Of a DNA stretch of 64,000 bases, positions 17,267 to 56,999 are shown in pieces. The stretch comes from a phage. The notes under the pieces were generated by a model, which was not told where the DNA came from, did no database searches, and was given only the letters and a program-made list of their open reading frames with translations. The stretch is from sequence record PZ386955.1, one strand, 5' to 3'. Every line of letters begins with the position of its first letter. Within the stretch, counting starts at the first letter, position 1. A program made the translations under genes and the position numbers.

Positions 17267-17902
17267 ATGGGAATACCATTTGATTTAAAACTTGATGGTT
17301 CTAACGATTTAGTAATGGTGGATGGTGATTTAACACTAACCACAACTAAAAGTGAAATTGCAGCACAGACGCTTGGAATAACACTTAGAACTTTCCGTGG
17401 AGAATGGTTCCTCAACTCTAATTTTGGGGTTCCATATCTGCAAGAGATTATTGGTGTTGCCAAGAAGAAAGAGATTGTTGATCGCATTTTCTTATCAACT
17501 ATCGCAAGTAATGTTTATATAGATAATATTAATTCCTACACATCCTCTTATGATAGAGATGATAGGTATTACTCAATGAACGTTACTGTTACAGTTGGTG
17601 AACAAGTTGTTAGTGCTCTATTCAGTACACAGCCGTCTGAAGAATATATCTATCCAGAAGCTGGTGACGATAATGCAGCAATCACTTGTGAAGCATTTGA
17701 AATTGTTGAATCTGCAAATAGACTCTATCGCTTTATTAACATTGTTGGTCTTCCTAGAGATACTTATTCTACTTGGTGGAATGAGTGGTCTAACGAGGCA
17801 TTGATTGAAAAATACCTTGTTAACGAAGCCAATAAAGGTCTTGCAACCAATTACAACTATGCATTAACAGCAACAATGGGAGCTACAAATAATAATGGCT
17901 GA
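17267..17902 (+). CDS. Baseplate wedge protein (gp25 / gpW-like N-terminal domain)
   Basis: N-terminal pattern (DG..LVMVDGDL...Q.LGITLRTFRGEWFLN..FGVPYLQEI) typical of gp25/W-like proteins; position after spike. Confidence 0.45.
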   Translation: MGIPFDLKLDGSNDLVMVDGDLTLTTTKSEIAAQTLGITLRTFRGEWFLNSNFGVPYLQEIIGVAKKKEIVDRIFLSTIASNVYIDNINSYTSSYDRDDRYYSMNVTVTVGEQVVSALFSTQPSEEYIYPEAGDDNAAITCEAFEIVESANRLYRFINIVGLPRDTYSTWWNEWSNEALIEKYLVNEANKGLATNYNYALTATMGATNNNG

Positions 17903-18368
17903 TTTAACTACAATCAAGGTGTCTGATCTACCTGTAACAACATCTGTTTCAGACACAGATTATTTTGTAACAGATCAATCAGGCATCACTAAGAAAACAT
18001 CATTACGTGTTCTTCTTGCGGGTGCTGGTGTTACACGAAATCGTCTTTCTGCAAGGGGTACTGTCACAAATACCCTAGCTTTAGATATTAGCACGGCAGA
18101 GTATTTCTCTGCCACTTTATCTAGTCCAACTTGCAGTATTTCATTTAGTAATGTTCCAGTTACAACTAACATTGTTCAAAACTTTACTCTATCCCTACGT
18201 CAAGGCAGTGGAGCAAATAAAGTAACGTGGCCTCAATCTGTTAAATGGAGTTTTGGTCGCGCTCCTGTTTTGAGTTATAAACAGGGAGCTACAGATATTT
18301 TTGAATTTGTTAGTTATGATAATGGAGCTACCTGGATAGGTAGTTTAGTGATGGCAGGAGTGATTTAA
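17895..18368 (+). CDS. Hypothetical tail fibre-related protein
   Basis: N-terminus (IKVSDLPVTTSVSDTDYFVTDQSG..KKTSL) resembles the N-terminal anchor motif of the tailspike at 23421. Confidence 0.4.
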   Translation: MADLTTIKVSDLPVTTSVSDTDYFVTDQSGITKKTSLRVLLAGAGVTRNRLSARGTVTNTLALDISTAEYFSATLSSPTCSISFSNVPVTTNIVQNFTLSLRQGSGANKVTWPQSVKWSFGRAPVLSYKQGATDIFEFVSYDNGATWIGSLVMAGVI

Positions 18369-21244
18369 TGTCAAGAATTAAGCACAGAATTGACAATGTT
18401 TTTCAATTGATCGATGGACATATTCAGTTCTTAGATCGTAATACAGGTTTAACTGTAGATCCTACAGTGCAACACTATGTATTAAACCCACAAAACGTTC
18501 TAGCTAATAACAGACACTTTATAAACTGGACTGCTCAAGAAGGGCAACCAAACGGGGATGCTACAACAGAAGGTCAATCCGTGCTTATTCTTGGTTGCGC
18601 TTATGCATACCTAGCTTCCGGCGATACAAAGTATTTAGACTCTGCTAAAAAATATTGGCAAGCCTATATAGATTACTTCTTTGGTGGTCAACCTATCCCA
18701 GATCCGCCAGCAAAGTATCGCCCTAACTGGATTATTAACGGTAAAGAACCACGTCTTGCACATTATCCTCTTACAGATGATGGCTACCCTACACACGGAG
18801 GTTTTAAGGGTAGCTTAATGACGTGGACTAACGGTAGAACAGTTATTCCTCATGGTGCTCCACATTGGGGAGAATACCTTGACAAAGCATGGTTTGCTTT
18901 TAATGGTAATCTAGGATGGAACTCTGTAAACGCTACAGTATATGCTGTTAATGCAGATGGTACAACAGATTGGTCTAAGAAGGGAGATCAATGGGATGTT
19001 GATTGGATCATTGATCGTCTAGGACGTAAAGTTGACTGGGATGGGAATATCTTAGAAGAAGGTTTTCCAACATCTCAATACGGAACAGTTCAACTAAAAA
19101 ATACTTCTGTAAACGGTACATATAAATTTAACTACGCGACTTGTAACCCTGTTGAACACGGTGGTTATTTAATGGAGCGTAACACTATGTGGCATAACAG
19201 ACCAGTTAACGTTCCGGTAGAAATGGGCTTTCAGGATAATGCGTCAGATGCCGAAACTTGGTGGTGTGATGCTAATTACCTGATGTACCAAATTACAGGA
19301 GAAAGAAAATATTGGCTATGCTGGCAGTCTTCACTGTTAGTGTGTCAAGATTACTCAAACATTGATATGTTTGATAAATTCTTCCGTAAGTCTACATATG
19401 CAACTATTCCGTTTACAGATGGCATCTCTTACGATTATTCGTACCCATCTACAGCGATACCTAAATATTCAAGAGATACTTTAGGTTATATTGTTATTAG
19501 ACAAGATGTTGCTGCTCAAACAACATTAGAACAGCAATCTATTTGGTTTAAAGTTGATCAGAACTCTAAGTTACGAGTCCAGTTTCAAGGTGTAGATGAC
19601 GCAGGACATGGTATTCTTTTCCGTCCAGAGTTGGAATTAAGTAAGACCAAAGATGAAAATAACACAGTAACTTACCGCTGTGGCTTACCACTAGGTACAG
19701 CTAATATGACAAGCATGGATATTCCACTATCCAGCTTTATGAGAAGTACCCCTCCAAATGGTGGAACATATATTATCGCAGATCCGCGAATTATTGTTGA
19801 CTGGGGTGACAATACTGTGGTACAATATAAGTATGTAACAGGTATTGCTGGAACTAATAATGACCAGATTGTTACTGCATCAATGGATACGGATGGTGGT
19901 GTTACTGTTGGTTTTTGGTTAACTCCTACATCAAAAGCTAATGTTAAGTCTATTACATATAGAACATATGAAGATGACTTTAACATGACTATCACGGATG
20001 CTCAAGGTTGGAGATGGTGGGCTATGCTGCCTAAAACGCAAGGGGCATGGAGTACGAAGACTTTATCAGCCTCTGCTTTTAAGTTAAGTGCTTACCAGCC
20101 TAATCATCCAGAAACAGATCCTAAACCTTCAGCAATAAATCTTACTGCTGTAGATCAGGTAAATTTAGTTCTTGATACGGCTCCTGTCAATGGTTTAACA
20201 GGAACAATAGATTTCTATTGTATTAACGATGTACCTGAAAGATATTCGTCATCTTCTGGTGATGATTATACCATGTACTTCCGTATTACTGTACAGGCTT
20301 CAAGTCCTCATACTGCTAAGTTAGGTGATTGTACTATTATTGACTATAAGTTAAATAGTCTTAATTACACACCAGGAATAATTCCATTCTCTAATATCAG
20401 TGACCCAAACACTGCATTATACGATGGATGGCGTGGTATTCCATACCCAGGATACCAGTATCCTTCCTTATACTGTTTCGCAGGTAGGGATATTGATTGG
20501 ACACGTTTAAACAACAGTATTGATTTCTTGTATGATGCTCAAATGTGGTTTTATAACACGTTTGATCCTGTGATGCCTGGGCCTATGGCACAAGCATATG
20601 TGTGGGATCGTTGGGATGCAAGGAAATACGGTGAACCTAATACGTTTACAATGAAACACTGGAATGAAAAAGCGTGGGATGGTTATGAAGCTCGTGCATT
20701 CTACTGTGCTTGTCATGCTGTATACGAACTTGTACAAAGAGGAGAAACACCTCCTGAAAAACTAGTAACTGTTTGTAAAAATTGGATCAACTACCTTAAA
20801 TGGTTCCAAGACAATAATGATGGAAGAACACCAACTATCTTTAACCCAGATGGTACAGTTCTTGCGCCTATAGATGACTTTACTAGTCATATGTCTGCAC
20901 TGTTTATGGCGGGTTGTTCAATCATGGGCTTGGCAGGTTATGATTCACAAATTCCAAACATTGGTATTGTAGCAGACAGATGTTTTGATCTGATTCAGCA
21001 AAACTATATTGTGCTTTCCCCTAACCATCCGATGAATGGTTCCTGGAGTGTTGCACCGCGTCCAGATTCAGATAACGGAATGTTCTTTGGTTTCCATGCT
21101 GGAGAACTATTACGTGGTTTTGGTTTATATGCTTTATATCGTAAACTAAATCCTCAAAACGCCTTACCAATTTTGGACAATAGTAACATACCGACACTAA
21201 CTGTTCTAACTATGAATGATATTAGTGTTGATGTAACCAAATAA
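18368..21244 (+). CDS. Large virion protein (958 aa), probable baseplate/fibre component
   Basis: Long Trp/Tyr-rich ORF in the baseplate-fibre block, coupled to the upstream gene (ATGA overlap). Confidence 0.45.
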   Translation: MSRIKHRIDNVFQLIDGHIQFLDRNTGLTVDPTVQHYVLNPQNVLANNRHFINWTAQEGQPNGDATTEGQSVLILGCAYAYLASGDTKYLDSAKKYWQAYIDYFFGGQPIPDPPAKYRPNWIINGKEPRLAHYPLTDDGYPTHGGFKGSLMTWTNGRTVIPHGAPHWGEYLDKAWFAFNGNLGWNSVNATVYAVNADGTTDWSKKGDQWDVDWIIDRLGRKVDWDGNILEEGFPTSQYGTVQLKNTSVNGTYKFNYATCNPVEHGGYLMERNTMWHNRPVNVPVEMGFQDNASDAETWWCDANYLMYQITGERKYWLCWQSSLLVCQDYSNIDMFDKFFRKSTYATIPFTDGISYDYSYPSTAIPKYSRDTLGYIVIRQDVAAQTTLEQQSIWFKVDQNSKLRVQFQGVDDAGHGILFRPELELSKTKDENNTVTYRCGLPLGTANMTSMDIPLSSFMRSTPPNGGTYIIADPRIIVDWGDNTVVQYKYVTGIAGTNNDQIVTASMDTDGGVTVGFWLTPTSKANVKSITYRTYEDDFNMTITDAQGWRWWAMLPKTQGAWSTKTLSASAFKLSAYQPNHPETDPKPSAINLTAVDQVNLVLDTAPVNGLTGTIDFYCINDVPERYSSSSGDDYTMYFRITVQASSPHTAKLGDCTIIDYKLNSLNYTPGIIPFSNISDPNTALYDGWRGIPYPGYQYPSLYCFAGRDIDWTRLNNSIDFLYDAQMWFYNTFDPVMPGPMAQAYVWDRWDARKYGEPNTFTMKHWNEKAWDGYEARAFYCACHAVYELVQRGETPPEKLVTVCKNWINYLKWFQDNNDGRTPTIFNPDGTVLAPIDDFTSHMSALFMAGCSIMGLAGYDSQIPNIGIVADRCFDLIQQNYIVLSPNHPMNGSWSVAPRPDSDNGMFFGFHAGELLRGFGLYALYRKLNPQNALPILDNSNIPTLTVLTMNDISVDVTK

Positions 21245-21252
21245 GGAAAATA

Positions 21253-23412
21253 ATGAAACAGGCTATTTTTACTGTAACTCGAAATACGAGAGTAAATGCC
21301 AGTTCATTCAGCTATAAGACCGTCGATGGAACGGCGGTCGCTGGTAGAGATTATGTAGCTAAACAGGGAACAGTAACGTTCCCTTCTGATGCAGATTCTG
21401 CTACTGTAGTGGTTGATGTATATGAACGTCCGGCAAACTCTTTAGATCTTTATTTTACTCTTGAGATTACTAGCATAAGTCAAAATAACATGATGATCAA
21501 CGAAGAAATTCGTTGTGTTATTACGACTGATCAATCGAATACAACCCCGCTAACTTGGCCTGTTGTGAAGTCTAGAATGTTTGATCCTAAGTTTTGGACA
21601 ATAGATTCTCAAGCAACAGAAAGTTGTTCTATTATCTCTAATGGTGATTCTTTCACAGCAAGAATGGTTAATAGGACAGTGGCTGGTCTTGCTGGGATTA
21701 TTTGGTCAACTTACGATAAATATGATCACAAAGGATTAGGCTACCAAGAACATTCTGACTTAAGTAAAGAGAAACTTTGGTTTAAAATGGAACTTAGTCA
21801 AGGTGTTCCTGGATTAAAAGAAGAAAAATTAATACCATCCTTAACAGTGACACTGAAGGATGAAACAGTTCATTATGTATCTCTAAACTTTTATGCAGAA
21901 GAAGTTTCAGAAGATGGTAAGACAGCAACAATCAAACTAGATTTCTCAAATTTAAAATCTGGGCCAGAAAATGATATTGTTGTTGACACTACACAGATAG
22001 ATAATATGTTCTTCTCCTTGATCTCCACAAGGTATCAAGAAATTGAAGATATTATTCCTGTAGACAATGTGGATCTTTCCTTTAAGTTTACCATACTGGA
22101 GCCTGATACTGGTTACAGTATGATGAATATGGGTAATTTAAATGTTCCGGCGCACACCATAAGAATGTGTACATCTTATGATGATATGTATAACCTAACC
22201 CCGGAGCGAGTTATTTCTAACACCTATAGATTAGGTTATAGAGATATGATTAACCATTATAATGGTATGTCACATTATTATCAATTTAGTTGGGACGCTG
22301 GCTCTAATAAATGGGCTTTGAACAGAACAGAATATTTAAACCCAGCAACAGAAGCCTGGTTTGATAACTTCCACGCTAATGCAAAAGCTATGGGCTACAC
22401 AGTAATGAACTCCTTAAGTTTTGAACTTATGAGTACAGTGTGTCCCGTAGAATGGGTACAACATACTTGGAATGATGATCTGGCTGCTACAGGTTATGAG
22501 CCACCAAGTTATGTTTTATCTCCTTCAATTGATGAAGGGATGAATTATTTACAAGGTGTAATAAATAAGATAGCTTCTATATCCGCTGCTAATGATCTTC
22601 CGGTTATTATTCAGGTTGGTGAACCGTGGTGGTGGTATAACACAGCTACCAATCTCCCGTGTATTTATGATTATACAACCAAAGTTGCATTTAATAATGA
22701 AACTGGATTGTATGCACAAGATGTTGGTACAGTTAAAAATTATAAAACTGGTACACCATATGATGAATATTATGCATTCCTATCTAAAACATTAGGACTG
22801 CGTGTTGCTAAATTTGCAACAGATACCAGATTAGCATACCCTGGAGCGAAAGTTACATTGTTACCATTTGTACCATCCATCTTAGGTAATGGTATGATGG
22901 AGTTTGTTAACTTCCCTAAAGATTATTATATTCCAGAAAACTTTGACTTTTATTGTTCAGAATGTTATGACTGGTTGTTGGAAGGCAAGATGGAAAGATC
23001 TTTCGACGCTATCACAATACCTAATGAGCAACTAGGTTTTAGTTATGATAAGATACATTATCTTGCAGGGTTTGTTCCAGACGCAACTCTAGCACCATTA
23101 TATGGCTTTGATCCTGAATCAAACTATAGAACATATTTGTGGAAAATGATTATAGGCAATATTGTCTTGAATGACCAGAAGTTTGTTGGTTTATATCAAT
23201 ACATATGGGCTTACCCACAAATAATGCATGATTCAATAACTGTTCTTAATTCAAAATCCCAAGTGTTTTATATGGGTAATGTGCCTTTGAATTGCTACTT
23301 GCAAGATATCACTCTTAAACAGGTAAATGTTGAGATTGCCACTATAAGTGGAATTACATTAGCCACTAAATCTGGAGAAGATTTAGTAACAACACAAAAA
23401 TTTTATATATAG
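21253..23412 (+). CDS. Large virion protein (719 aa), probable fibre/spike component
   Basis: Long Trp-rich ORF in the fibre block; no recognisable catalytic motif. Confidence 0.45.
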   Translation: MKQAIFTVTRNTRVNASSFSYKTVDGTAVAGRDYVAKQGTVTFPSDADSATVVVDVYERPANSLDLYFTLEITSISQNNMMINEEIRCVITTDQSNTTPLTWPVVKSRMFDPKFWTIDSQATESCSIISNGDSFTARMVNRTVAGLAGIIWSTYDKYDHKGLGYQEHSDLSKEKLWFKMELSQGVPGLKEEKLIPSLTVTLKDETVHYVSLNFYAEEVSEDGKTATIKLDFSNLKSGPENDIVVDTTQIDNMFFSLISTRYQEIEDIIPVDNVDLSFKFTILEPDTGYSMMNMGNLNVPAHTIRMCTSYDDMYNLTPERVISNTYRLGYRDMINHYNGMSHYYQFSWDAGSNKWALNRTEYLNPATEAWFDNFHANAKAMGYTVMNSLSFELMSTVCPVEWVQHTWNDDLAATGYEPPSYVLSPSIDEGMNYLQGVINKIASISAANDLPVIIQVGEPWWWYNTATNLPCIYDYTTKVAFNNETGLYAQDVGTVKNYKTGTPYDEYYAFLSKTLGLRVAKFATDTRLAYPGAKVTLLPFVPSILGNGMMEFVNFPKDYYIPENFDFYCSECYDWLLEGKMERSFDAITIPNEQLGFSYDKIHYLAGFVPDATLAPLYGFDPESNYRTYLWKMIIGNIVLNDQKFVGLYQYIWAYPQIMHDSITVLNSKSQVFYMGNVPLNCYLQDITLKQVNVEIATISGITLATKSGEDLVTTQKFYI

Positions 23413-23420
23413 GAGTAAAA

Positions 23421-25019
23421 ATGTCAACTACAATTACTAATTTACCCGAAACATCAAAAGTTAATGGTTCTGATTACCTGGTTTTAGACCAACCTGATAA
23501 GACTGTTAAAAGCACAGTTTCCAACTTTCTTACTGACACTGGGGTGGTTTTAGCCACCCAGTTGAAAGATACAGATGGTGCACAGTTGGTTGGATTCGGC
23601 CCTGGGCATACAGTTGCGGACTTAAAAAGTCCGACCACGGCAAACGGTGATGCCTTAATTCCAGTTGTTCAGCCGTACCCAAATGCTGTAGTAACCACTG
23701 TTCATGAGAAGATGGACGAGATTAAAACTGTAGTAGATTGGGGAGCCGTCAGTGACGTAGAGTCATCATCGGCTGCACAAAAGATGGTTGATGATACGGG
23801 AACATTAATTGTACCTGCTGGATTTAATTTGGTTGCTAAAAATATAAATATCTCCAGCGCCGACAAAGTGTTCATTTACGGAAAAATGACTTTACCGTCT
23901 GGATGTGTAGATTTTGACCGAGCCTTGTATGCGTACAGCAACACGCGGGGTCTTCAGGTGTATATTAACGAAATAGACGGTAATAAGGCTGGTCAGTCCG
24001 GCGATAACGTAGGCACACATTTATTGTATTTAATACAATGCCAGAAAGTGAATGTATACGTTAAGTACGCGCACAGTAACTACTTCAGCCGTACCTATAC
24101 GCCTGTACCGTCCCCCGATGGATTCCGTACTGAATCAGCTGGTGCCTTGTTCTTCCATGAATGCCACTACTCTCAATTCATCGCTGACAGAATTGAGAAT
24201 TGGGGTCGTGAAGGTATTATGGCTAATAAAACCAACTACTCCGTAATGGCGCTAGGTTTAGCGTTAGGTGATGCTAGTTCCAACGGGCAGGAGTACAGCG
24301 GCTTCCAATTTTCCGGTGACTACAATAACCTGCTATATGCTAATGTAGAGAACTCCGGTGCAAGCGGGGGTAGCTTTGACTGTCGTTATAGCCATGCTGG
24401 TACTATCAAGGTTATTAGAAACAAGTACTTTGGAAGCGTCGGATTTGGCCATTCTAATTCCCCTGCTGAGTACAACGTGATTGATTGTATCATTAGCATT
24501 AACTCCGCTGCTAACGGTTTCCAGTTTGCAGCCAACAGCAATAACAACCGAGTACTATCTGCAACCGTAATAAGTCCAGCGGCTGTAGGCATAAACCAGT
24601 CAGACGGCGCTGATAACAATAGTGTTGACAACTTCACAGTTAAAGACCCAGGAGCCTATCACGTAACAGCTTTTAACTCTACGTTAACGCTAACTAACGG
24701 CGACTTAACAAGCAACGCCAACAACAAGACCAGGCTAAACGCCGTAGGGACAGGAAAGTTCATACTCAGAAACGTTCGCTTAGACCCAGAAAAACCACTC
24801 CATATGCGCGCCTTCAATGGTTTAGCCGGAAACTCTAGGGCAGATATAGTAGACGCAAACATAAATGTTTGGTCACATATAATTATTGTACCCGCTAATG
24901 CAAATGGGGCGTTGGCAAATGCCTATGTAGCAGCAGTTAATAACGGCTCTTGCACTATAGCTACCGCTTCTGGTTCTCCTGCTGGGTCGGGGGCTAGTTT
25001 TAGGTATATGGTGGTTTAA
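23421..25019 (+). CDS. Tailspike / receptor-binding protein (beta-helix-like), compositionally distinct
   Basis: N-terminal anchor motif (ITNLPETSKVNGSDYLVLDQPDKTVKSTVS); Asn/Gly/Ser-rich repeats; central and C-terminal part visibly richer in G/C than neighbours. Confidence 0.5.
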   Translation: MSTTITNLPETSKVNGSDYLVLDQPDKTVKSTVSNFLTDTGVVLATQLKDTDGAQLVGFGPGHTVADLKSPTTANGDALIPVVQPYPNAVVTTVHEKMDEIKTVVDWGAVSDVESSSAAQKMVDDTGTLIVPAGFNLVAKNINISSADKVFIYGKMTLPSGCVDFDRALYAYSNTRGLQVYINEIDGNKAGQSGDNVGTHLLYLIQCQKVNVYVKYAHSNYFSRTYTPVPSPDGFRTESAGALFFHECHYSQFIADRIENWGREGIMANKTNYSVMALGLALGDASSNGQEYSGFQFSGDYNNLLYANVENSGASGGSFDCRYSHAGTIKVIRNKYFGSVGFGHSNSPAEYNVIDCIISINSAANGFQFAANSNNNRVLSATVISPAAVGINQSDGADNNSVDNFTVKDPGAYHVTAFNSTLTLTNGDLTSNANNKTRLNAVGTGKFILRNVRLDPEKPLHMRAFNGLAGNSRADIVDANINVWSHIIIVPANANGALANAYVAAVNNGSCTIATASGSPAGSGASFRYMVV

Positions 25020-25026
25020 TTTATTT

Positions 25027-25049
25027 CCCCCTCTTCGGAGGGGTTTACT
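25027..25049 (+). terminator. Rho-independent terminator after the tailspike gene
   Basis: CCCCCTC-TTCG-GAGGGG hairpin followed by TTTACT. Confidence 0.5.
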
Positions 25050-25069
25050 AGAAAAACAATGAGGTTTAT

Positions 25070-25219
25070 ATGAACGAAATGTTCTCGCAAGGCGGTATTG
25101 CCCCAGGTATTACTGCCATTAGTCTTAGTGCTGCTGTACTTGTGCATTCAGCGGGTTCTGTAGACCTTGGGGAATTAGCTGTATCTCGTGATTTAAAAAG
25201 TAATGAGAACGCACTATGA
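25070..25219 (+). CDS. Small hydrophobic protein (49 aa), not in ORF track
   Basis: ATG with GAGG RBS; MNEMFSQGGIAPGITAISLSAAVLVHSAGSV...; stop overlaps next start (ATGA). Confidence 0.3.
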   Translation: MNEMFSQGGIAPGITAISLSAAVLVHSAGSVDLGELAVSRDLKSNENAL

Positions 25220-25461
25220 GAAAATTTTTAATAGGTATGTTCTGTACATATCCTGATAATAAAGTCAGTTCTACTAAAGTTTGGAATGCTATTGGTATGA
25301 TTGTTATGTCCAGTATGTTTATTTATTTGGGAATTGATAAAGAAATTCCTGAATGGATGGGCTGGGCTTTTGTTTTTATGATCACACCATCCAGACTAAT
25401 GAAGAATTTAATAGATTTACGTTGGGGCAGATCACCTGCCCCTGATAAGGAGGATAACTAA
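25216..25461 (+). CDS. Small membrane protein (two predicted TM helices)
   Basis: 81 aa with hydrophobic stretches IGMIVMSSMFIYLGI and WMGWAFVFMI; coupled to neighbours. Confidence 0.4.
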   Translation: MRKFLIGMFCTYPDNKVSSTKVWNAIGMIVMSSMFIYLGIDKEIPEWMGWAFVFMITPSRLMKNLIDLRWGRSPAPDKEDN

Positions 25462-26948
25462 TGGCAGATTATGGTTTAACAGATGCTGGTTTTGTAATTC
25501 CAACGTTTGATGATATTTTAAATAATTATATGACAGCATTGAAAAACACTTTCGGTGCAGATACAGCTACATCTGAAGATACTGTCTTTGGTCAACTGTT
25601 CCGTATTATTGCATACACAGATTACACCCTTTGGGAAGGTATGCAAGGTGTTTACAATACCCAAACCTTAGATGGTGCAGAAGGTATTTACCTTGATGAA
25701 ATCTTCTCTAAAAGAGGTTTTTATCGTAAAGCTGCTTCTGCTGGTAGTGGTTATGCTTATGTTAAATCTAACAATAAGGCAGCTTGGACTTATGAACTAA
25801 GCACAGATGTTTATTTTAATGCCGATAACGATTTGACATATTATGTCAGTGCACCAACAATGTTGAATGCTAAGATTGGAGCATATACCATTTCTAAAGC
25901 AAACGCAACAGCTTCTGGTGAAACTTCTATTACTTTCTACATTCAAAGTGCTATTGATGGTGGTCTTAACAGTAAAACACTAAGTCCTAGCAATACAAAC
26001 TTTATTTTAGATCTCACAAATTTCATTAAAGCTAACGTATCAACAACAGATCGTGCTTTAGTATGGAATGATGCTAGTAATGTTTATATGGGTTATAATC
26101 CAGAAGATAATGTTAACCCAATAGGTCTAGTAACACCAGTGAAATTTTACGCATCTATTGCAATAGGTACAAAATGGAGTGAAATTCCAGTTACGTGTTC
26201 AGACGTTGGTTATAATCCAGTAGGTACAGAAAGTATCACAGGTATTTCTTCAACGTTTACAGGCTTTTTAGATACAGGTAACTTCTATCCATTCTCTCCA
26301 GGTACAGATGTTGAAACAGATGCAGAATTCCGCTCTCGTTTCAATGATAATATGGATGAAGCTAATGCTGCTACTCGTGCTGCTATTGTTAAAGCTCTGC
26401 TACTGACAGATGGTGTGACAAAGGTTAAGATTTATGATAACCCTACATTACACGATCAGGAACATGCGCCAGCTATGACATTCCAGACTATTGTGTATGG
26501 TGGTACAGCAGAAGAAGTTGCACAGGTTATTTATAATACTAAGCCTATTAACACCTTAACCTATGGTACAACAGCAATTACTATCGTAACAGAAGATGGC
26601 GGTCAAGAAGTAATTCGTTTTTCTCCTGGTGACAATGCTGAATATTCACTTAAACTAGTATATCAAACTGGTAATGGTAGTGTGCTAAGTACAACAGAAA
26701 GGGAAAATATTGTTTCTGCTCTTGCAAACTTACAGGCTTATTTTGAATTAGGGTCAACAGTAACTAACGACCAGATAAAAGGTGTAATTTATTCTGCACT
26801 TGCGTTCGGACGCTTGACTTCTCTCCGTGTTTATGTTAAACTTAATACTGAGGATGACAGTAAATATAATGAGGGAGATATCACTCCAGCGTACAATGTT
26901 GTACCATCCTTTGACCTTGATAATATTTCCTACGAGTACGGAGTCTAA
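25461..26948 (+). CDS. Baseplate J-like protein (P2 gpJ / Mu gp47 family)
   Basis: N-terminal pattern (LTDAGFVIPTFDDIL...FGADTATSEDTVFGQLFRIIAY...GIYLDEI) typical of baseplate J; followed by gpI-like and fibre genes. Confidence 0.5.
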   Translation: MADYGLTDAGFVIPTFDDILNNYMTALKNTFGADTATSEDTVFGQLFRIIAYTDYTLWEGMQGVYNTQTLDGAEGIYLDEIFSKRGFYRKAASAGSGYAYVKSNNKAAWTYELSTDVYFNADNDLTYYVSAPTMLNAKIGAYTISKANATASGETSITFYIQSAIDGGLNSKTLSPSNTNFILDLTNFIKANVSTTDRALVWNDASNVYMGYNPEDNVNPIGLVTPVKFYASIAIGTKWSEIPVTCSDVGYNPVGTESITGISSTFTGFLDTGNFYPFSPGTDVETDAEFRSRFNDNMDEANAATRAAIVKALLLTDGVTKVKIYDNPTLHDQEHAPAMTFQTIVYGGTAEEVAQVIYNTKPINTLTYGTTAITIVTEDGGQEVIRFSPGDNAEYSLKLVYQTGNGSVLSTTERENIVSALANLQAYFELGSTVTNDQIKGVIYSALAFGRLTSLRVYVKLNTEDDSKYNEGDITPAYNVVPSFDLDNISYEYGV

Positions 26949-26950
26949 AA

Positions 26951-27580
26951 ATGGCAGTGAGTGTTGACCATGTGACAACGTGGGATAGTATCAATGAAGA
27001 TGTTAAAGACCTACTGATTGAAGATTTTAAATCTTCTCCGAACATTGTCAAACTACTCTATATCATTTCTAGCGAAAAACAAAAGATAGATCAGGCAATG
27101 ATCTATCTTGCCAAACACCGCTTAATCTCTACTGCAACTGGTAAGTATTTAGATCTTATTGGTGAAGAAATGGGGATGGAAAGAAATGGTGCTACAGATG
27201 AAGAGTATCGTACAATATTAAAAATCAGGGCTTATCGTGTTGCGTCTTCTGGTACGCGAGATGATATCATTGATATGTTCGCTCGTTTTACAGGAACAGA
27301 AAAAGAAACGATCAATACATACGTTGGATTAAATAAAACATTCGACGTATTCTTTTATAATTTGTGTCTACAATCCGATCAGGCAGTAGCACAGTTACTT
27401 AACGTTTTCCCGATCCTAAGTAGTTATCGCTTAGGTGCGAAAGCGGGTTCAGCCTTTGGTTTCACTTCCTATTATGCCACAAAGCCACCTCATGGTATAG
27501 GTGGTTTAGGTTCTCTTTACACAGAGGCTGAAGGAGATGACACAGGGCGAATGACTATGCTGATAGCTCAAATAGAATAA
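26951..27580 (+). CDS. Baseplate protein (P2 gpI-like position)
   Basis: 209-aa ORF between J-like gene and tail fibre gene; synteny only. Confidence 0.4.
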   Translation: MAVSVDHVTTWDSINEDVKDLLIEDFKSSPNIVKLLYIISSEKQKIDQAMIYLAKHRLISTATGKYLDLIGEEMGMERNGATDEEYRTILKIRAYRVASSGTRDDIIDMFARFTGTEKETINTYVGLNKTFDVFFYNLCLQSDQAVAQLLNVFPILSSYRLGAKAGSAFGFTSYYATKPPHGIGGLGSLYTEAEGDDTGRMTMLIAQIE

Positions 27581-29147: not shown

Positions 29148-29489
29148 ATGGAGCTAACAGAAGTATGGGATATCGCTAAAGAGGCGATTATCCCTCTTAT
29201 TGGCGTAATCTGGGTGGTCTTCAAACAGAAGATAGATGATATGGCAAGTGATTTGGATAAAATGGAAGACAAATACCGCGAACTAGAAAAGAAGTTGGTG
29301 TTTGTTGAATCCACTTATGCTACCAAAGCAGAACTTGCTCAAATGCTTAACCAGATCAACTCTACATTAATGGCAAATAATACTGCCTTAGAACAGAAGA
29401 TTGAAAAAATAATGGATTTAAAAAATGCTCCTGTTCAATTAATGTTAGAGGAGATTACAAAGCGCACACAAAGTAAGGACAAAAATTAA
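29148..29489 (+). CDS. Hypothetical coiled-coil protein
   Basis: 113 aa, N-terminal hydrophobic segment then charged helical region. Confidence 0.4.
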   Translation: MELTEVWDIAKEAIIPLIGVIWVVFKQKIDDMASDLDKMEDKYRELEKKLVFVESTYATKAELAQMLNQINSTLMANNTALEQKIEKIMDLKNAPVQLMLEEITKRTQSKDKN

Positions 29490-33945: not shown

Positions 33946-36765
33946 ATGTATCCTATTCCTTTATTTATGTCAACAACATCAGCTTCAGTAGTAACAGCTA
34001 CATCTATAACCACTTCCTCTATTGGTATTGCAATAGTTGGTAGTAAAAAGCAACTGACATACACAGTTTCACCGGAAGATGGTGCGTTATTTGATATAGC
34101 TTTTTCATCTTCAGATAATACCAAAATGGTTATAGATAATAGTGGTATGATGGAGTTTGTTGCCGAAGGTGGTTTTGATGCAATAATGACAGCTAAAAAT
34201 AATTTAGGTGCTGTCTTAACTGATCAATCTGGTGGTTATGCTTCAGAATTAAGCGTGTACACTGAAAGTCTATCAGCTATGGATGTAGGCACTACTCAAC
34301 AGTTGGTTGCTACAATCAGTCCAGAAGGTGCTAAAGATCTTCCAGACATGGTAATTACGTACACCACAACAGATCCAGAAGTAGCTACTGTAAGCCCTAC
34401 AGGATTAATAACTGCTCTTAAAGATGGTAATTGCCGTATAGGTTGTACTGCAACGTATCAAGGAACAGTGGTGGCCTCTGATAGTTCTTATTTAGGTGTT
34501 AATGCTATTCCTGTCATTTCTAATGTAACAGCCGTGGCAAACAGCTATGGAGACGTTCGTGTTGCTTGGGATGTAGCTGATCCGCTAGATGGTGATACTT
34601 ATACTGTAGAAGTATTAGATTTAAGTAATAATAGTGTCCAGTGGACTACAACAACCACGAATACTTACGCTTACTTTGATATCTCTGACTCTATTCCTCT
34701 TTATGGGTTTGCTCCAACATACCTTAAAATTAGCGTTAAGAGCACCAAAGCAGCAGCCGTTATCTTTAATAACTCAATAGCTACAGATGATTCATTCATT
34801 AAAGAAGTTATTGTCTTTGCTGGACAAGATAACGTAAATGCACACTTTACAGAATTATCTGGTGCAAATAAAGCAGCAATGAGTAGCACAACAGTCCGTA
34901 ATGCATATGCTACGCAACGTGGTTTAGCAAATGCTGAAGTTCTTCCGTTAAATACAGCTTCTGGATCATCAGCAGCAGATAAATATGCTGACGATAAAGC
35001 TGGAACAGGTACACCAGACAACTACTGGTATGATCTGGATAACACAGCAGATGGGCCATGCTTAACTAACTTTATCACTAAAGTCACACCTTATGCAAGT
35101 AAGGTTAAAGCAATTGTTTGGGGACAAGGTGAAAATGATGCTGTATCAGCATCTTCAACTGTTGCAGGTAGGTACAGTAACACTACACGTTACCATGATG
35201 CTACGATAGCTATCTTTGATAAGATGCGTACAATAGTTCCTGCTTCTCAAGCAAAAATTGTTTGGCAGATCCTAGGACGTTCTTATTTATATGGTGTAGA
35301 AGTTAATGGTGTGGATTGGCAGAAGTACAGAAATGTACAAAGAACCATCTCTACAGCACGTGATGATGTTATCATTGGTTCTTGGGTAGATGGTGCTGAA
35401 CGTTACAGTGGCTATGTTTATGAAGAAGGTATTGATGGTCGTATCCATTATGTTTCTTCTGTATACCAAACAGCAGCTACAAAACTTGCTAAATCGGCAG
35501 CAGACGGTACAGACTTAACATCAACGTCACCTGTTTGGGTTGATATGGCTGTTCCAACTGGAGCAACAGCTACTTCCCAATCTAATCAAGATACAATTTT
35601 AGCATGGGATGCTCAAGGCTATAGTAAACACTACTTCCGTAATATTAACGTCTTAACAGCATCTGTATTAACGGAACAAACGCTTAATACGAACAGCTAT
35701 ACGTTTACCTATGCAGATCAAGTAGCACAATATGGTTTTGCAGCAGGAACTACTATATTTGATGTTGCATATTATGACGAAGCAAATGATGTGTTATCTC
35801 CTTTAGTACGTTTTAATGTTAACGTTACAGCAGGAACCGAAGAAGATAAACCTGTCGTGATGGACTATGATTTGACGCAAGAAACTCTCCCATCAGATGT
35901 TAAGGTTAATGGTGGGAACTCTTTTGCTCGTGCTTCTGGAGATAAACTTGTAGCCACTAACACCTTGGTTGCTCCGTTGGAGTATGTTGGTACTACCCCT
36001 GTAGGTAGACGTGTAACAGCTAACACAGCTACACAAATTTTTGTCAACAACGCCTTAACAAGTGCAAGCCCGTGGGTAAAGACCAACTTAACTGTTGCAG
36101 CTTCATCTGATAACTCTCCGGCTGGAACTACTGCTAATGTATTCAAATTAACTCCGACTACAACCTCTAGTAGTCATATCTTAACTGCGACATATACTAA
36201 CGCGTACAACATATCTGCCGGACGTAACTGGTCTGCCTCTGTTTTCTTGAAAGCGAATGGGATTACTAAGGCCAAACTAAGATTAAAAGCAGGAACTGAA
36301 GTTAATGAGGGTACTTTTGATTTAGCAGCAGGTACATTCACAGGAAGTGAAGCTAATATTATATCTATGGGCAACGGTTGGTATCGTGCTATTCTGCATA
36401 AAACAGGGATAGCCAAACAGTCCTCCATAAGTTTTGAAATAATTGCCTTGGATGCAACTGGTGCGGAGATTTTCGCTGGAGATGGTACTAGTAACCTTGC
36501 AGTTTGGTTGCCACAGCTTGAAGGTGCTTCTACAGGAGAAACATCAAAAGCTGGATCGCCTTATGTCTGCACATATCCTGGAAATTTAGGAGGAGTATCC
36601 TTCACTATACCAAGGAACGGACATACTGGTGTGGATGTTTACTATTCCAACGGAGACGTTGTTCGTGACGTATTCTCTGGTACGGCATCTACTTGGACAA
36701 TAAACTACTCCAGCTTGTATGATTGGGGATCAGTCTTTATTACAGGTTTGAAATATTACGACTAA
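33946..36765 (+). CDS. Tail fibre/spike with Ig-like region and SGNH-type esterase-like domain
   Basis: VIVFAGQDNVNAH (GQSN-like block) and KAIVWGQGENDA (W.QGE.D block) in the order seen in SGNH acetylesterases; 939 aa. Confidence 0.5.
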   Translation: MYPIPLFMSTTSASVVTATSITTSSIGIAIVGSKKQLTYTVSPEDGALFDIAFSSSDNTKMVIDNSGMMEFVAEGGFDAIMTAKNNLGAVLTDQSGGYASELSVYTESLSAMDVGTTQQLVATISPEGAKDLPDMVITYTTTDPEVATVSPTGLITALKDGNCRIGCTATYQGTVVASDSSYLGVNAIPVISNVTAVANSYGDVRVAWDVADPLDGDTYTVEVLDLSNNSVQWTTTTTNTYAYFDISDSIPLYGFAPTYLKISVKSTKAAAVIFNNSIATDDSFIKEVIVFAGQDNVNAHFTELSGANKAAMSSTTVRNAYATQRGLANAEVLPLNTASGSSAADKYADDKAGTGTPDNYWYDLDNTADGPCLTNFITKVTPYASKVKAIVWGQGENDAVSASSTVAGRYSNTTRYHDATIAIFDKMRTIVPASQAKIVWQILGRSYLYGVEVNGVDWQKYRNVQRTISTARDDVIIGSWVDGAERYSGYVYEEGIDGRIHYVSSVYQTAATKLAKSAADGTDLTSTSPVWVDMAVPTGATATSQSNQDTILAWDAQGYSKHYFRNINVLTASVLTEQTLNTNSYTFTYADQVAQYGFAAGTTIFDVAYYDEANDVLSPLVRFNVNVTAGTEEDKPVVMDYDLTQETLPSDVKVNGGNSFARASGDKLVATNTLVAPLEYVGTTPVGRRVTANTATQIFVNNALTSASPWVKTNLTVAASSDNSPAGTTANVFKLTPTTTSSSHILTATYTNAYNISAGRNWSASVFLKANGITKAKLRLKAGTEVNEGTFDLAAGTFTGSEANIISMGNGWYRAILHKTGIAKQSSISFEIIALDATGAEIFAGDGTSNLAVWLPQLEGASTGETSKAGSPYVCTYPGNLGGVSFTIPRNGHTGVDVYYSNGDVVRDVFSGTASTWTINYSSLYDWGSVFITGLKYYD

Positions 36766-36770
36766 TAAAA

Positions 36771-36797
36771 AAGGAGCCATTAGGCTCCTTTTCTTTT
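36771..36797. terminator. Bidirectional terminator at the boundary between structural (+) and replication (-) modules
   Basis: GGAGCC-ATTA-GGCTCC hairpin flanked by an A-run upstream and TTTTCTTTT downstream; convergent genes on both sides. Confidence 0.6.
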
Positions 36798-36800
36798 ATC

Positions 36801-37181
36801 TTAATCAGTGAAAATTACACTTACATCTTCTTTAGAAAAGAGTTTATGATCTTCACCTTTTGTCTCAAGAGTTTCATACAGGTTAAGAAGTTCTGAAACA
36901 TCTTTCTCTACCAGTTTCTTCAATGTTGCAATTTTCTGTTTGCGACTCTTAATACGTTCAGCTACAACCTTACGTTGGTATCCAGCAGTACGATAACCTG
37001 AGAAAGTTACACCAGTGAGACTTGCAGTTACAGGATCGTAATGACGTTCAATCTGAAATTTATTAAAAGGTACAGCGTCATCACGAATAATCTTCCCACC
37101 ATTACTTACTTGACGAAGACCAGTAACTTGTTCTAGTCGTGCCATAGAAATCTTTGGAGACAGACCAGAGTCCAGGTTCAT
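36801..37181 (-). CDS. Hypothetical protein
   Basis: Track ORF 36801..37232 overlaps the methyltransferase gene; internal ATG at 37181 starts just after the upstream stop. Confidence 0.4.
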   Translation of the reverse strand: MNLDSGLSPKISMARLEQVTGLRQVSNGGKIIRDDAVPFNKFQIERHYDPVTASLTGVTFSGYRTAGYQRKVVAERIKSRKQKIATLKKLVEKDVSELLNLYETLETKGEDHKLFSKEDVSVIFTD

Positions 37182-56021: not shown

Positions 56022-56999
56022 TTAAGCAACAGTCTGGTCTTCTTTTTCAGGGAAGATTAAACTTGCAATAACACCCAACCCAAGAGTACCTAACACGATA
56101 TACATACTGATCGTCGGGTCAATGTGTGCTGGCAGGAAACTCATTTTTGCGTGCAGAGTTTCTGCAAACGGATGATACATCAGTTTTACACCCACAAACA
56201 CCAAGACTACGATAACTGCTTTCTCCAGATGAACCAAATACTTCAGTGCAACACTAAGAACAAAGAACAGAGCACGTAAACCTAAGATTGCACAGAGCAT
56301 CGAAGAGAACACCAGCAGAGGTTCTTGTGTCACTGCAATTACTGCTGGAACAGAGTCTACTGCAAAGATTACGTCAACCATTTCCATTACAAACACACAA
56401 ACCAGAGCCGGAGTTGCTACACGAACACCATTTTTGATTGTGAAGAACTTCTCACCATCCATCTGATCAGATACAGGGAACAGCTTACGAACAATGCGAG
56501 TAGCCCAGTGTTTAGAGTAATCAACTTCTGCATCATTATCTCCAGCGAATACCATTTTAGCCGCACAGAAAAGGATGACAGCACCGAAGAAGATATTAAC
56601 ATACCAGCCCAAACTCAACAAGTAAGTGCCTACTGCTACAAACACACCTCGGAAGACAATCGCACCTGCAATACCCCAAAGTAGAATCTTGTGTTGTAAG
56701 TGTGTGCTTTTAATACCAAAACTTGCGAATACTGCCACAAATACTACTAAGTTATCTACAGAAAGAGATTTCTCCAACACATACCCACTCAAGAACAAGC
56801 TCGCAAAATCAGCACCGTGTTGGAAGTATACAAAACCATAGTAGGCTAATGATACTCCAATCCAGAAAATTGACCAGCCAATTGCAGATTTAAATGAAAT
56901 TTCTTTGTTTTCTCTGTGTCCAAAGAAGTCAATACAAATCGACAAGACTAAAATACCCACTAAAACAACCACATCAATAATTGGGAAACCCAGTTGCAT
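56022..56999 (-). CDS. TerC-family integral membrane protein
   Basis: Multi-pass membrane protein with duplicated TerC signature: EKSLSVDNLVVFVAVFASFG and FAVDSVPAVIAVTQEPLLVFSSMLCAILGLRALFF. Confidence 0.75.
   Translation of the reverse strand: MQLGFPIIDVVVLVGILVLSICIDFFGHRENKEISFKSAIGWSIFWIGVSLAYYGFVYFQHGADFASLFLSGYVLEKSLSVDNLVVFVAVFASFGIKSTHLQHKILLWGIAGAIVFRGVFVAVGTYLLSLGWYVNIFFGAVILFCAAKMVFAGDNDAEVDYSKHWATRIVRKLFPVSDQMDGEKFFTIKNGVRVATPALVCVFVMEMVDVIFAVDSVPAVIAVTQEPLLVFSSMLCAILGLRALFFVLSVALKYLVHLEKAVIVVLVFVGVKLMYHPFAETLHAKMSFLPAHIDPTISMYIVLGTLGLGVIASLIFPEKEDQTVA

Follow-up and report, generated by a model that had tools for sequence, protein, structure and literature searches.

A chimeric tailspike in the variable gp143 slot of a phi92-like phage

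Results

The tailspike gene and its breakpoints

We analysed a stretch of 64,000 nucleotides (nt) of phage DNA (sequence record PZ386955.1; hereafter the window, at its full length), which is that of a phi92-like myovirus of the genus Justusliebigvirus. One of its open reading frames (ORFs), 23421–25019 on the plus strand, encodes a tailspike of 532 amino acids (aa) that is a chimera: in a slot already known to be variable, an N-terminal anchor of the phi92 gp143 type is joined to a body that is otherwise found on tailspikes with other N-termini. The best explanation, which we consider highly probable, is that an anchor belonging to the lineage carries an imported beta-helix receptor-binding/depolymerase module, swapped by way of flanking arms. 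An earlier note on this DNA had singled out the interval 23421–25219 and proposed that the distal, receptor-binding part of the protein had been exchanged, and this is borne out both by a homology breakpoint that coincides with a step in base composition and by the sharing of the body with tailspikes of other N-termini.

A megablast search with positions 21000–27000 matched 148 phage records, mostly Escherichia phages of the Stephanstirmvirinae (Justusliebigvirus, Phapecoctavirus). The best matches are about 98% identical, cover at most 76% of the query and always fall into two pieces. Compared directly with phi92 over 8999–40000, the window is collinear at 98.5–98.8% identity except for 23582–25220 and a second block at about 34535–36768. 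From this collinearity and the phi92 annotation, ORF 23421–25019 occupies the slot of the endosialidase tailspike gp143. Its 5′ neighbour is a gp142-like gene with the Pfam domains Calx-beta, NCTSP_N and NCTSP TIM barrel, its 3′ neighbour is a gp144-like membrane protein gene followed by a baseplate wedge gene, and the position between these two neighbours, as given by their Pfam domains, the phi92 annotation and the collinearity, is the one expected for a member of the slot. The protein itself points the same way, since its residues 1–67 are 84–87% identical to the tailspikes of many relatives.

The N-terminal part was described as a conserved anchor in the earlier note, and it is one: the DNA through codon 54 (to 23582) is 97–99% identical in more than 100 records of Stephanstirmvirinae. 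The anchor proper corresponds to 23421–23573 (plus strand), or approximately residues 1–51. In direct alignments, homology to phi92, ECGD1, KMB37, PaulScherrer and ZCKP1 stops at 23581/23582, which is codon 54, and the matches listed among 330 phage records end near the same point, at about 23582. The breakpoint can be placed exactly by means of a siphovirus-like contig (L002) that carries the body behind a different N-terminus. On the 5′ side of the 9-mer GATGGTGCA (23574–23582, plus strand), which encodes D-G-A of an L-x-x-x-DGAxLVG linker, the window follows phi92, ECGD1 and KMB37, and from the same 9-mer onward it follows L002 (alignment A4). Because the 9-mer is common to both aligned groups, the 5′ crossover lies within the linker, where it would have used a stretch of microhomology. 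The L002 copy is 92.3% identical in DNA to the window over exactly 23574–25019. On the 3′ side its homology ends at the tailspike stop codon, and sequence of the phi92 group, including a hairpin, is back at 25016–25028. The acquired receptor-binding body, predicted to be a right-handed beta-helix and a polysaccharide depolymerase, is therefore delimited as 23574–25019 (plus strand; residues 52–532).

Base and codon composition

The earlier note also described the body as richer in G/C and in G/C-ending codons. Computed values agree: the guanine-plus-cytosine content (GC) of ORF 23421–25019 is 0.445 against 0.380 for the whole window, and its GC at third codon positions (GC3) is 0.422 against a mean of 0.272 (standard deviation 0.050, 59 ORFs), which at z = +3.0 is the top of all. 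The first and second codon positions (GC1 and GC2) are ordinary, so the amino-acid composition is not the explanation of the high GC3. Within the gene the values change abruptly. The anchor region has a GC of 0.373, and the first 40 codons have a GC3 of 0.25; in 200-nt windows GC climbs from 0.31–0.375 to 0.48 across 23400–23600, which places the step at about 23540–23580, within a few bases of the homology breakpoint, and it then remains at 0.40–0.49 to about 25100. For the body (23574–25019) GC is 0.453.

To put these numbers on a common scale, we took 34 codon blocks of equal length from other genes of the window. GC3 of codons 55–532 (23583–25019) is 0.437, compared with a mean of 0.26, a standard deviation of 0.023 and a maximum of 0.303 in the blocks, and a chi-square-like statistic of synonymous codon use is 213 for the body, compared with 47 ± 12 (maximum 91). 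The earlier note had named GC and codon usage equal to the genome average as grounds against an exchange; the body lies beyond every comparison block on both measures, and well beyond the spread that the window shows elsewhere.

A high GC3 is by itself no proof of transfer, because the major capsid gene (5878–6879, plus strand; Pfam Phage_cap_E), a core gene that serves as a control, has the second highest value in the window, 0.398. The four other large fibre/spike genes of the window have a GC3 of 0.24–0.28. Raised values are also seen for the ORF just upstream of the major capsid gene (0.336; the pair spans 5464–6879, plus strand), for a small gp149-like ORF at 29148–29489 (plus strand, 0.386) and for a TerC-family membrane protein gene at 56022–56999 (minus strand, 0.377).

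The raised GC does run on beyond the tailspike stop, to about 25215 (GC 0.429). This stretch is a separate element that is conserved in the phi92 group and lies outside the swapped body. Within the interval 23421–25219 of the earlier note, the tailspike ends at its stop, and the last 200 nt hold the hairpin and an anchor-only stub, a conserved 3′ flank that we return to below.

Occurrence of the body elsewhere

A blastn search in its distant mode with the body alone (23583–25015) gives no match in 50,697 phage records, and tblastn of the whole tailspike against the same records finds the anchor and linker only, reaching residue 178 at most. The donor is accordingly not among sequenced phage isolates. 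About 155 Salmonella phage records were considered as possible donors of the body and rejected, since their similarity is confined to the sequence 3′ of the stop and no match is left once that sequence is excluded.

A large protein database holds one identical protein, known from Logan assemblies only, and a graded series of homologs that extend from about residue 45 to the C-terminus: P0002 at 91%, P0003 and P0004 at 81%, and so on down to P0013 at 53%. Their N-termini all differ, and carry Pfam PF18668, or the P22 head-binding domain PF09008 (P0003, P0007 and P0013), or PF03906 together with PF18668. The same body is thus 53–91% identical to those of tailspikes with N-termini of the P22 head-binding, the TSP1/gp66, the T7 tail-fibre and other types. 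In DNA, the match to a P22-like prophage (L004) spans 23727–24704 at 88.8% identity.

The genomic contexts are equally varied. P0002 is encoded on a 39-kb siphovirus-like contig with tape measure, DUF1833, PolA, SNF2 and PD-(D/E)XK genes, a T7-like podovirus has P0004 as its tail fibre, and P0011 comes from an SU10-like podovirus. P0003 belongs to a P22-like Escherichia coli prophage (coat/gp16, SieA, Arc, Ant, Mnt-like), where the tailspike is followed directly by an O-antigen acyltransferase gene of the Acyl_transf_3+SGNH type and then by an integrase gene. P0012 belongs to a siphovirus-type prophage in which gtrA, gtrB and a type-specific glucosyltransferase gene lie directly 3′ of the tailspike. 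All homologs that bear organism names are from Escherichia except one, from Enterobacter cancerogenus. We also observed that two of the prophages (P22-like, L004:10001–15152; siphovirus-like, L019:5535–10095) share one E. coli integration site, which adjoins mlaA, fadL, DUF406 and thiolase genes. Profile scans of species-representative and IMG/VR contigs add distant relatives only, at 32–53% identity, including one in a metagenome-assembled genome of Pararhodobacter.

Transfer between genera

The cassette has also moved recently within the Stephanstirmvirinae. An 83-kb contig (L006) encodes a protein identical to the window tailspike, in flanks that are 96% identical to the Phapecoctavirus ZCKP1 and only 60–85% (about 76%) identical to the window. 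Over 23304–25215 the two are 97–100% identical in 100-nt windows; over 23304–25097 (1794 nt) they differ at 12 positions, of which eight fall in the ORF and are all synonymous. Because the cassette is near-identical and its flanks have diverged, this is a single cassette that two genera share despite about 24% divergence of their backbones, i.e., a recent inter-genus transfer.

The alignment to ZCKP1 itself, which holds a different cassette, pinpoints the arms. The 5′ arm (23283–23582, plus strand), which runs from the last part of the gp142-like gene through the ribosome-binding site and tailspike codons 1–54, is 93–100% identical between the two, and the adjacent backbone is 67–85% identical. 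The 3′ arm (25096–25215, plus strand), inside the stub ORF, is 97–98% identical to ZCKP1 and 92–97% identical to many relatives, with 57–88% in the backbone downstream. These flanks are homogenised recombination arms, and a whole cassette would be able to move between genera of the Stephanstirmvirinae by homologous recombination through two such near-invariant arms.

The copies of the body also differ in composition in an orderly way. GC of the body is 0.453 in the window, 0.479 in L002 (genome 0.50) and 0.441 in the prophage L004 (prophage 0.437). The window and L002 differ at 111 sites; in 67 of these A/T in the window stands opposite G/C in L002, and in 30 the bases are the other way round (binomial p = 2e-4). 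Polarising the substitutions with L004 as outgroup gives 26 GC-to-AT and 16 AT-to-GC changes in the window lineage, compared with 8 and 22 in the L002 lineage (Fisher p = 0.004). Each copy drifts toward its own resident genome, which agrees with uptake of the module by an AT-rich myovirus, from a donor that we can only infer.

Predicted fold and function of the body

The earlier note suggested a structure prediction as a check for a beta-helix. An AlphaFold2 monomer model built on a 21-sequence alignment has a mean pLDDT (predicted local distance difference test) of 82.5, with residues 100–532 mostly above 90 and arranged as a run of short successive strands. Foldseek ranks the tailspikes of Sf6 and HK620 at the top, at 10–15% identity, and phmmer aligns residues 72–139 to residues 131–198 of the Sf6 tailspike (E 1e-4). 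By its predicted fold, then, the window protein is a right-handed parallel beta-helix tailspike. A Pfam search of the tailspike gives no family at E ≤ 0.01, including PF12708 (Pectate_lyase_3) and PF13229 (Beta_helix), and a PHROG search gives only weak matches at the N-terminus. D186, E264, D320 and D395 are invariant across the 21 homologs, which makes them candidate catalytic residues.

By analogy, the beta-helix would bind and cleave a serotype-specific surface polysaccharide, and so let the other fibres reach the outer membrane. In P22-like phages, a tailspike beside genes for O-antigen acetylation or glucosylation is the classic arrangement for seroconversion. Because the prophage homologs adjoin genes of exactly these two kinds, the target is predicted to be an E. 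coli O-antigen, which we regard as rather probable; the alternative would be a capsule or another glycan. As a depolymerase, the body might have a specificity that has yet to be characterised.

The anchor and a related motif in the gp140-like fibre

A similar anchor motif was said to occur in ORF 17895–18368 (plus strand), and it does. This ORF encodes a gp140-like small tail fibre protein, the homolog of phi92 gp140 (PHROG 9017, 'tail fiber protein'), with the related N-terminal motif LPxTxxVxxxDYxVxDQ...T.K. Tailspike residues 5–42 align to its residues 9–46 with 37% identity (BLASTP E 1e-4), and the Smith–Waterman score of the pair corresponds to z = 7.3, a score that none of 500 shuffles attained. 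The motif was also looked for in seven other tail proteins of the window, none of which shows any likeness. The shared motif suggests that the tailspike and gp140 dock on similar sites. A cryo-electron microscopy study placed gp143, by inference, at the tip of the L-shaped 'fibre I' (PMC13450770). Modelled as a monomer, the anchor has a pLDDT below 50; residues 1 to about 51 presumably fix what would be a trimer on a baseplate-associated fibre scaffold.

Hairpin and anchor-only stub downstream of the tailspike

Just 3′ of the stop lies the hairpin CCCCTC-TTCG-GAGGGG (25028–25043, plus strand; predicted –11.7 kcal/mol), so that the 3′ junction of the swap would fall between the stop codon and this element. 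It is kept in relatives, and ECGD1 has the compensatory stem CCCCGC/GCGGGG. A simple terminator scan did not call the hairpin, whose T-tail has only 3 T, and reported instead a weaker site that lies within the ORF, near its 3′ end. Conservation, the one compensatory change and the literature speak for a terminator role, and the hairpin is probably the one that Pas et al. (2023; PMC10408124) describe downstream as 'motif three'.

The hairpin is followed by a 49-aa ORF (25070–25219, plus strand) with a ribosome-binding site of its own and a stop that overlaps the ATG of the gp144-like gene. In L006, L008, ZCKP1 and PaulScherrer the same ORF is 101–102 aa long (PaulScherrer 101 aa), and an in-frame deletion of 159 nt is common to the window, ECGD1 and KMB37, so that the 49-aa form retains the first 9 and the last 40 residues of the longer one. 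The 102-aa form matches residues 1–95 of CBA120 TSP1 (PDB 4OJ5) at E 4e-50 and about 90% identity, and it also matches G7C gp63.1, CBA120 TSP3 and TSP4, as well as the N-terminal parts of numerous PHROG tailspike families; the 49-aa form of the window still matches PHROG 7992 (1.3e-12) over its C-terminal part. With tblastn the 102-aa form finds 179 Salmonella phage records, mostly annotated tailspike genes, with 64–93% identity to tailspike N-termini. In the relatives examined no full-length tailspike or receptor-binding body follows the stub, and the ORF ends right before the gp144-like gene. By its sequence, 25070–25219 is what is left of a second tailspike, namely part of an N-terminal domain of the CBA120 TSP1/G7C gp63.1 type, and this anchor-only stub doubles as the 3′ homology arm. 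The region 25020–25215, labelled 'tail spike protein' in some records, was also considered as the 3′ remnant of a previous tailspike in the slot; this was rejected, because what the region holds is the 5′ part of another tailspike gene, one that has been truncated.

With over half of the domain deleted, the 49-aa form is unlikely to fold. The short copies differ from each other by the amino-acid changes M4L, I/T, R/C and L/P, which suggests relaxed constraint; the 101-aa variant of PaulScherrer is diverged yet intact. The product of the 102-aa form might cap a docking site on the virion. One could also imagine that the stub is a maintained landing pad, a TSP1/gp63.1-type ORF that serves as a 3′ arm for capturing cassettes of the Kuttervirus/Gamaleyavirus type, and its DNA is 97–98% identical between the two genera compared; we consider this doubtful.

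Other features of the window

ORF 33946–36765 (plus strand), which overlaps the second block in which the window departs from phi92, encodes a 939-aa tail protein containing Big_2, where phi92 has two short genes (gp152 and gp153) and lacks about 1.1 kb. We rejected it as a second mosaic, because the long form is the common one in the genus and phi92 is the exception: in 27 records the match extends over at least 80% of the query, with 98.3–98.6% identity for the best among the matches listed. The cumulative GC skew peaks at about 36000–37000, where plus-strand structural genes give way to minus-strand genes, and this peak is an ordinary effect of the transcribed strand.

Discussion

The best account of the stretch between the DGA linker and the stop codon is that a beta-helix module was imported by recombination from the higher-GC gene pool of phages and prophages, with the 5′ crossover using a short linker motif that is common to many tailspikes. 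In principle a native gene could reach so high a GC3 through codon selection for translation or expression, as the similarly high value for the major capsid gene might suggest. Such selection is extremely improbable here: it would have to begin inside the ORF, exactly on the homology breakpoint, and spare the other four large fibre/spike genes, and the body is missing from more than 100 close relatives, whereas its DNA is 92% identical to a gene of an unrelated phage. A transfer in the reverse direction deserves more attention, since recombination is symmetrical, a near-identical external donor was not found and the module is present in two genera of the Stephanstirmvirinae. It could then have been born in phi92-like myoviruses and exported to siphoviruses, podoviruses and prophages. 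However, the GC of the body is far from that of the backbone (0.38) and near that of the prophage and siphovirus copies (0.44–0.48), the polarised substitutions show the window copy drifting from GC to AT as expected of a newcomer in an AT-rich genome, and the diversity of the family (53–91% identity, tens of cluster members) is found in E. coli prophages, whereas the Stephanstirmvirinae copies are essentially one allele. We therefore judge export from the myoviruses to be quite improbable, and favour import.

Several observations do weigh against this account, or against the function we ascribe to the body. Near-identical donor DNA outside the Stephanstirmvirinae was not found, and because the best outside match is 92%, the actual source and the direction of the transfer are deduced from the patterns above. 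The composition points to no single donor, given about 0.48 for L002 and about 0.44 for the P22-like prophage. The module is rare, which limits what can be said about the targeted serotype: single-sequence scans of one-genome-per-species contigs and of IMG/VR viral contigs gave no match, and a search of 5,426 complete E. coli genomes yielded just one match, a weak one (66.8% over 278 nt), which allows no inference of serotype. The tailspike matches no Pfam glycosidase or lyase family, residues 1–99 (anchor and linker) are without a model in the monomer prediction, and some beta-helix spikes merely bind or deacetylate their glycan. It is conceivable, if unlikely, that the target is a capsule (K-antigen) or another exopolysaccharide, or that the spike binds or deacetylates without glycosidic cleavage. 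Against this, the nearest characterised relatives, as judged by Foldseek and phmmer, belong to the P22-like phages Sf6 and HK620 and act as O-antigen endoglycosidases, and two independent prophage types carry a homolog directly beside O-antigen-modifying genes (an acyltransferase; gtrABC).

Compared with known systems, the window tailspike has the same slot, anchor and flanking arms as phi92 gp143 (the endosialidase EndoN92) and the other slot tailspikes of Justusliebigvirus and Phapecoctavirus, and is among the shortest of them. Its body is unrelated to that of gp143. It has no C-terminal intramolecular chaperone domain and no PF18668 after the anchor, and Pfam finds no match to the endosialidase families PF12217, PF12218, PF12219 and PF12195 or to the chaperone PF13884. 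With the tailspikes of P22-like (Lederbergvirus) E. coli prophages it has only the body in common, at 53–81% identity between the linker and the C-terminal end. According to Pfam, the head-binding domain PF09008 is missing from the window protein, which sits on a contractile-tail baseplate rather than on a podovirus tail. The solved relatives, of Sf6 and HK620, share the beta-helix, and the window protein is 10–15% identical to any solved tailspike. CBA120 TSP1 and G7C gp63.1 (4QNL) compare with the stub, in which their N-terminal domain is kept and their receptor-binding body is not.

That anchors are conserved and receptor-binding domains exchanged horizontally, with conserved motifs on either flank, has been described for eight genera, including Justusliebigvirus, Kuttervirus and Gamaleyavirus (Pas, Latka, Fieseler, Briers 2023, Virol J, PMC10408124). 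The window fits this scheme and adds to it a crossover at a 9-nt microhomology and a 3′ arm that is an anchor-only stub ORF; its body subtype occurs in 0 of 50,697 phage records. Tailspike modularity in the genus is thus already published, and the window body is a new allele in a known system. The slot can also lose its tailspike body altogether. In the Escherichia phage ESCO9 (L022:2622–2870) it is reduced to an 82-aa anchor remnant, annotated 'endo-N-acetylneuraminidase', and because ESCO9, which has lost the body, is propagated on DH5alpha, the slot's tailspike is dispensable on that host. Phi92-like phages are known for a multivalent, 'Swiss army knife' adsorption (PMC11984140), and the module described here would give the virion access to strains of the target serotype.

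We regard this as a clear but ordinary instance of how phages change their host range, which leaves the current understanding unchanged. As a module exchange it is unusually clean and resolved to the base: the crossover is confined to 9 nt in the DGA linker, the 3′ boundary falls at the stop and hairpin, the arms keep 93–100% identity between genera with backbones about 24% apart, and the drift toward the AT-rich genome can be measured. The module itself, rare and predicted to be specific for an E. coli glycan, is one for which there is neither a solved structure nor a Pfam family. Its boundaries mark exact splice points for engineering tailspike bodies into phi92-like phages of broad host range.

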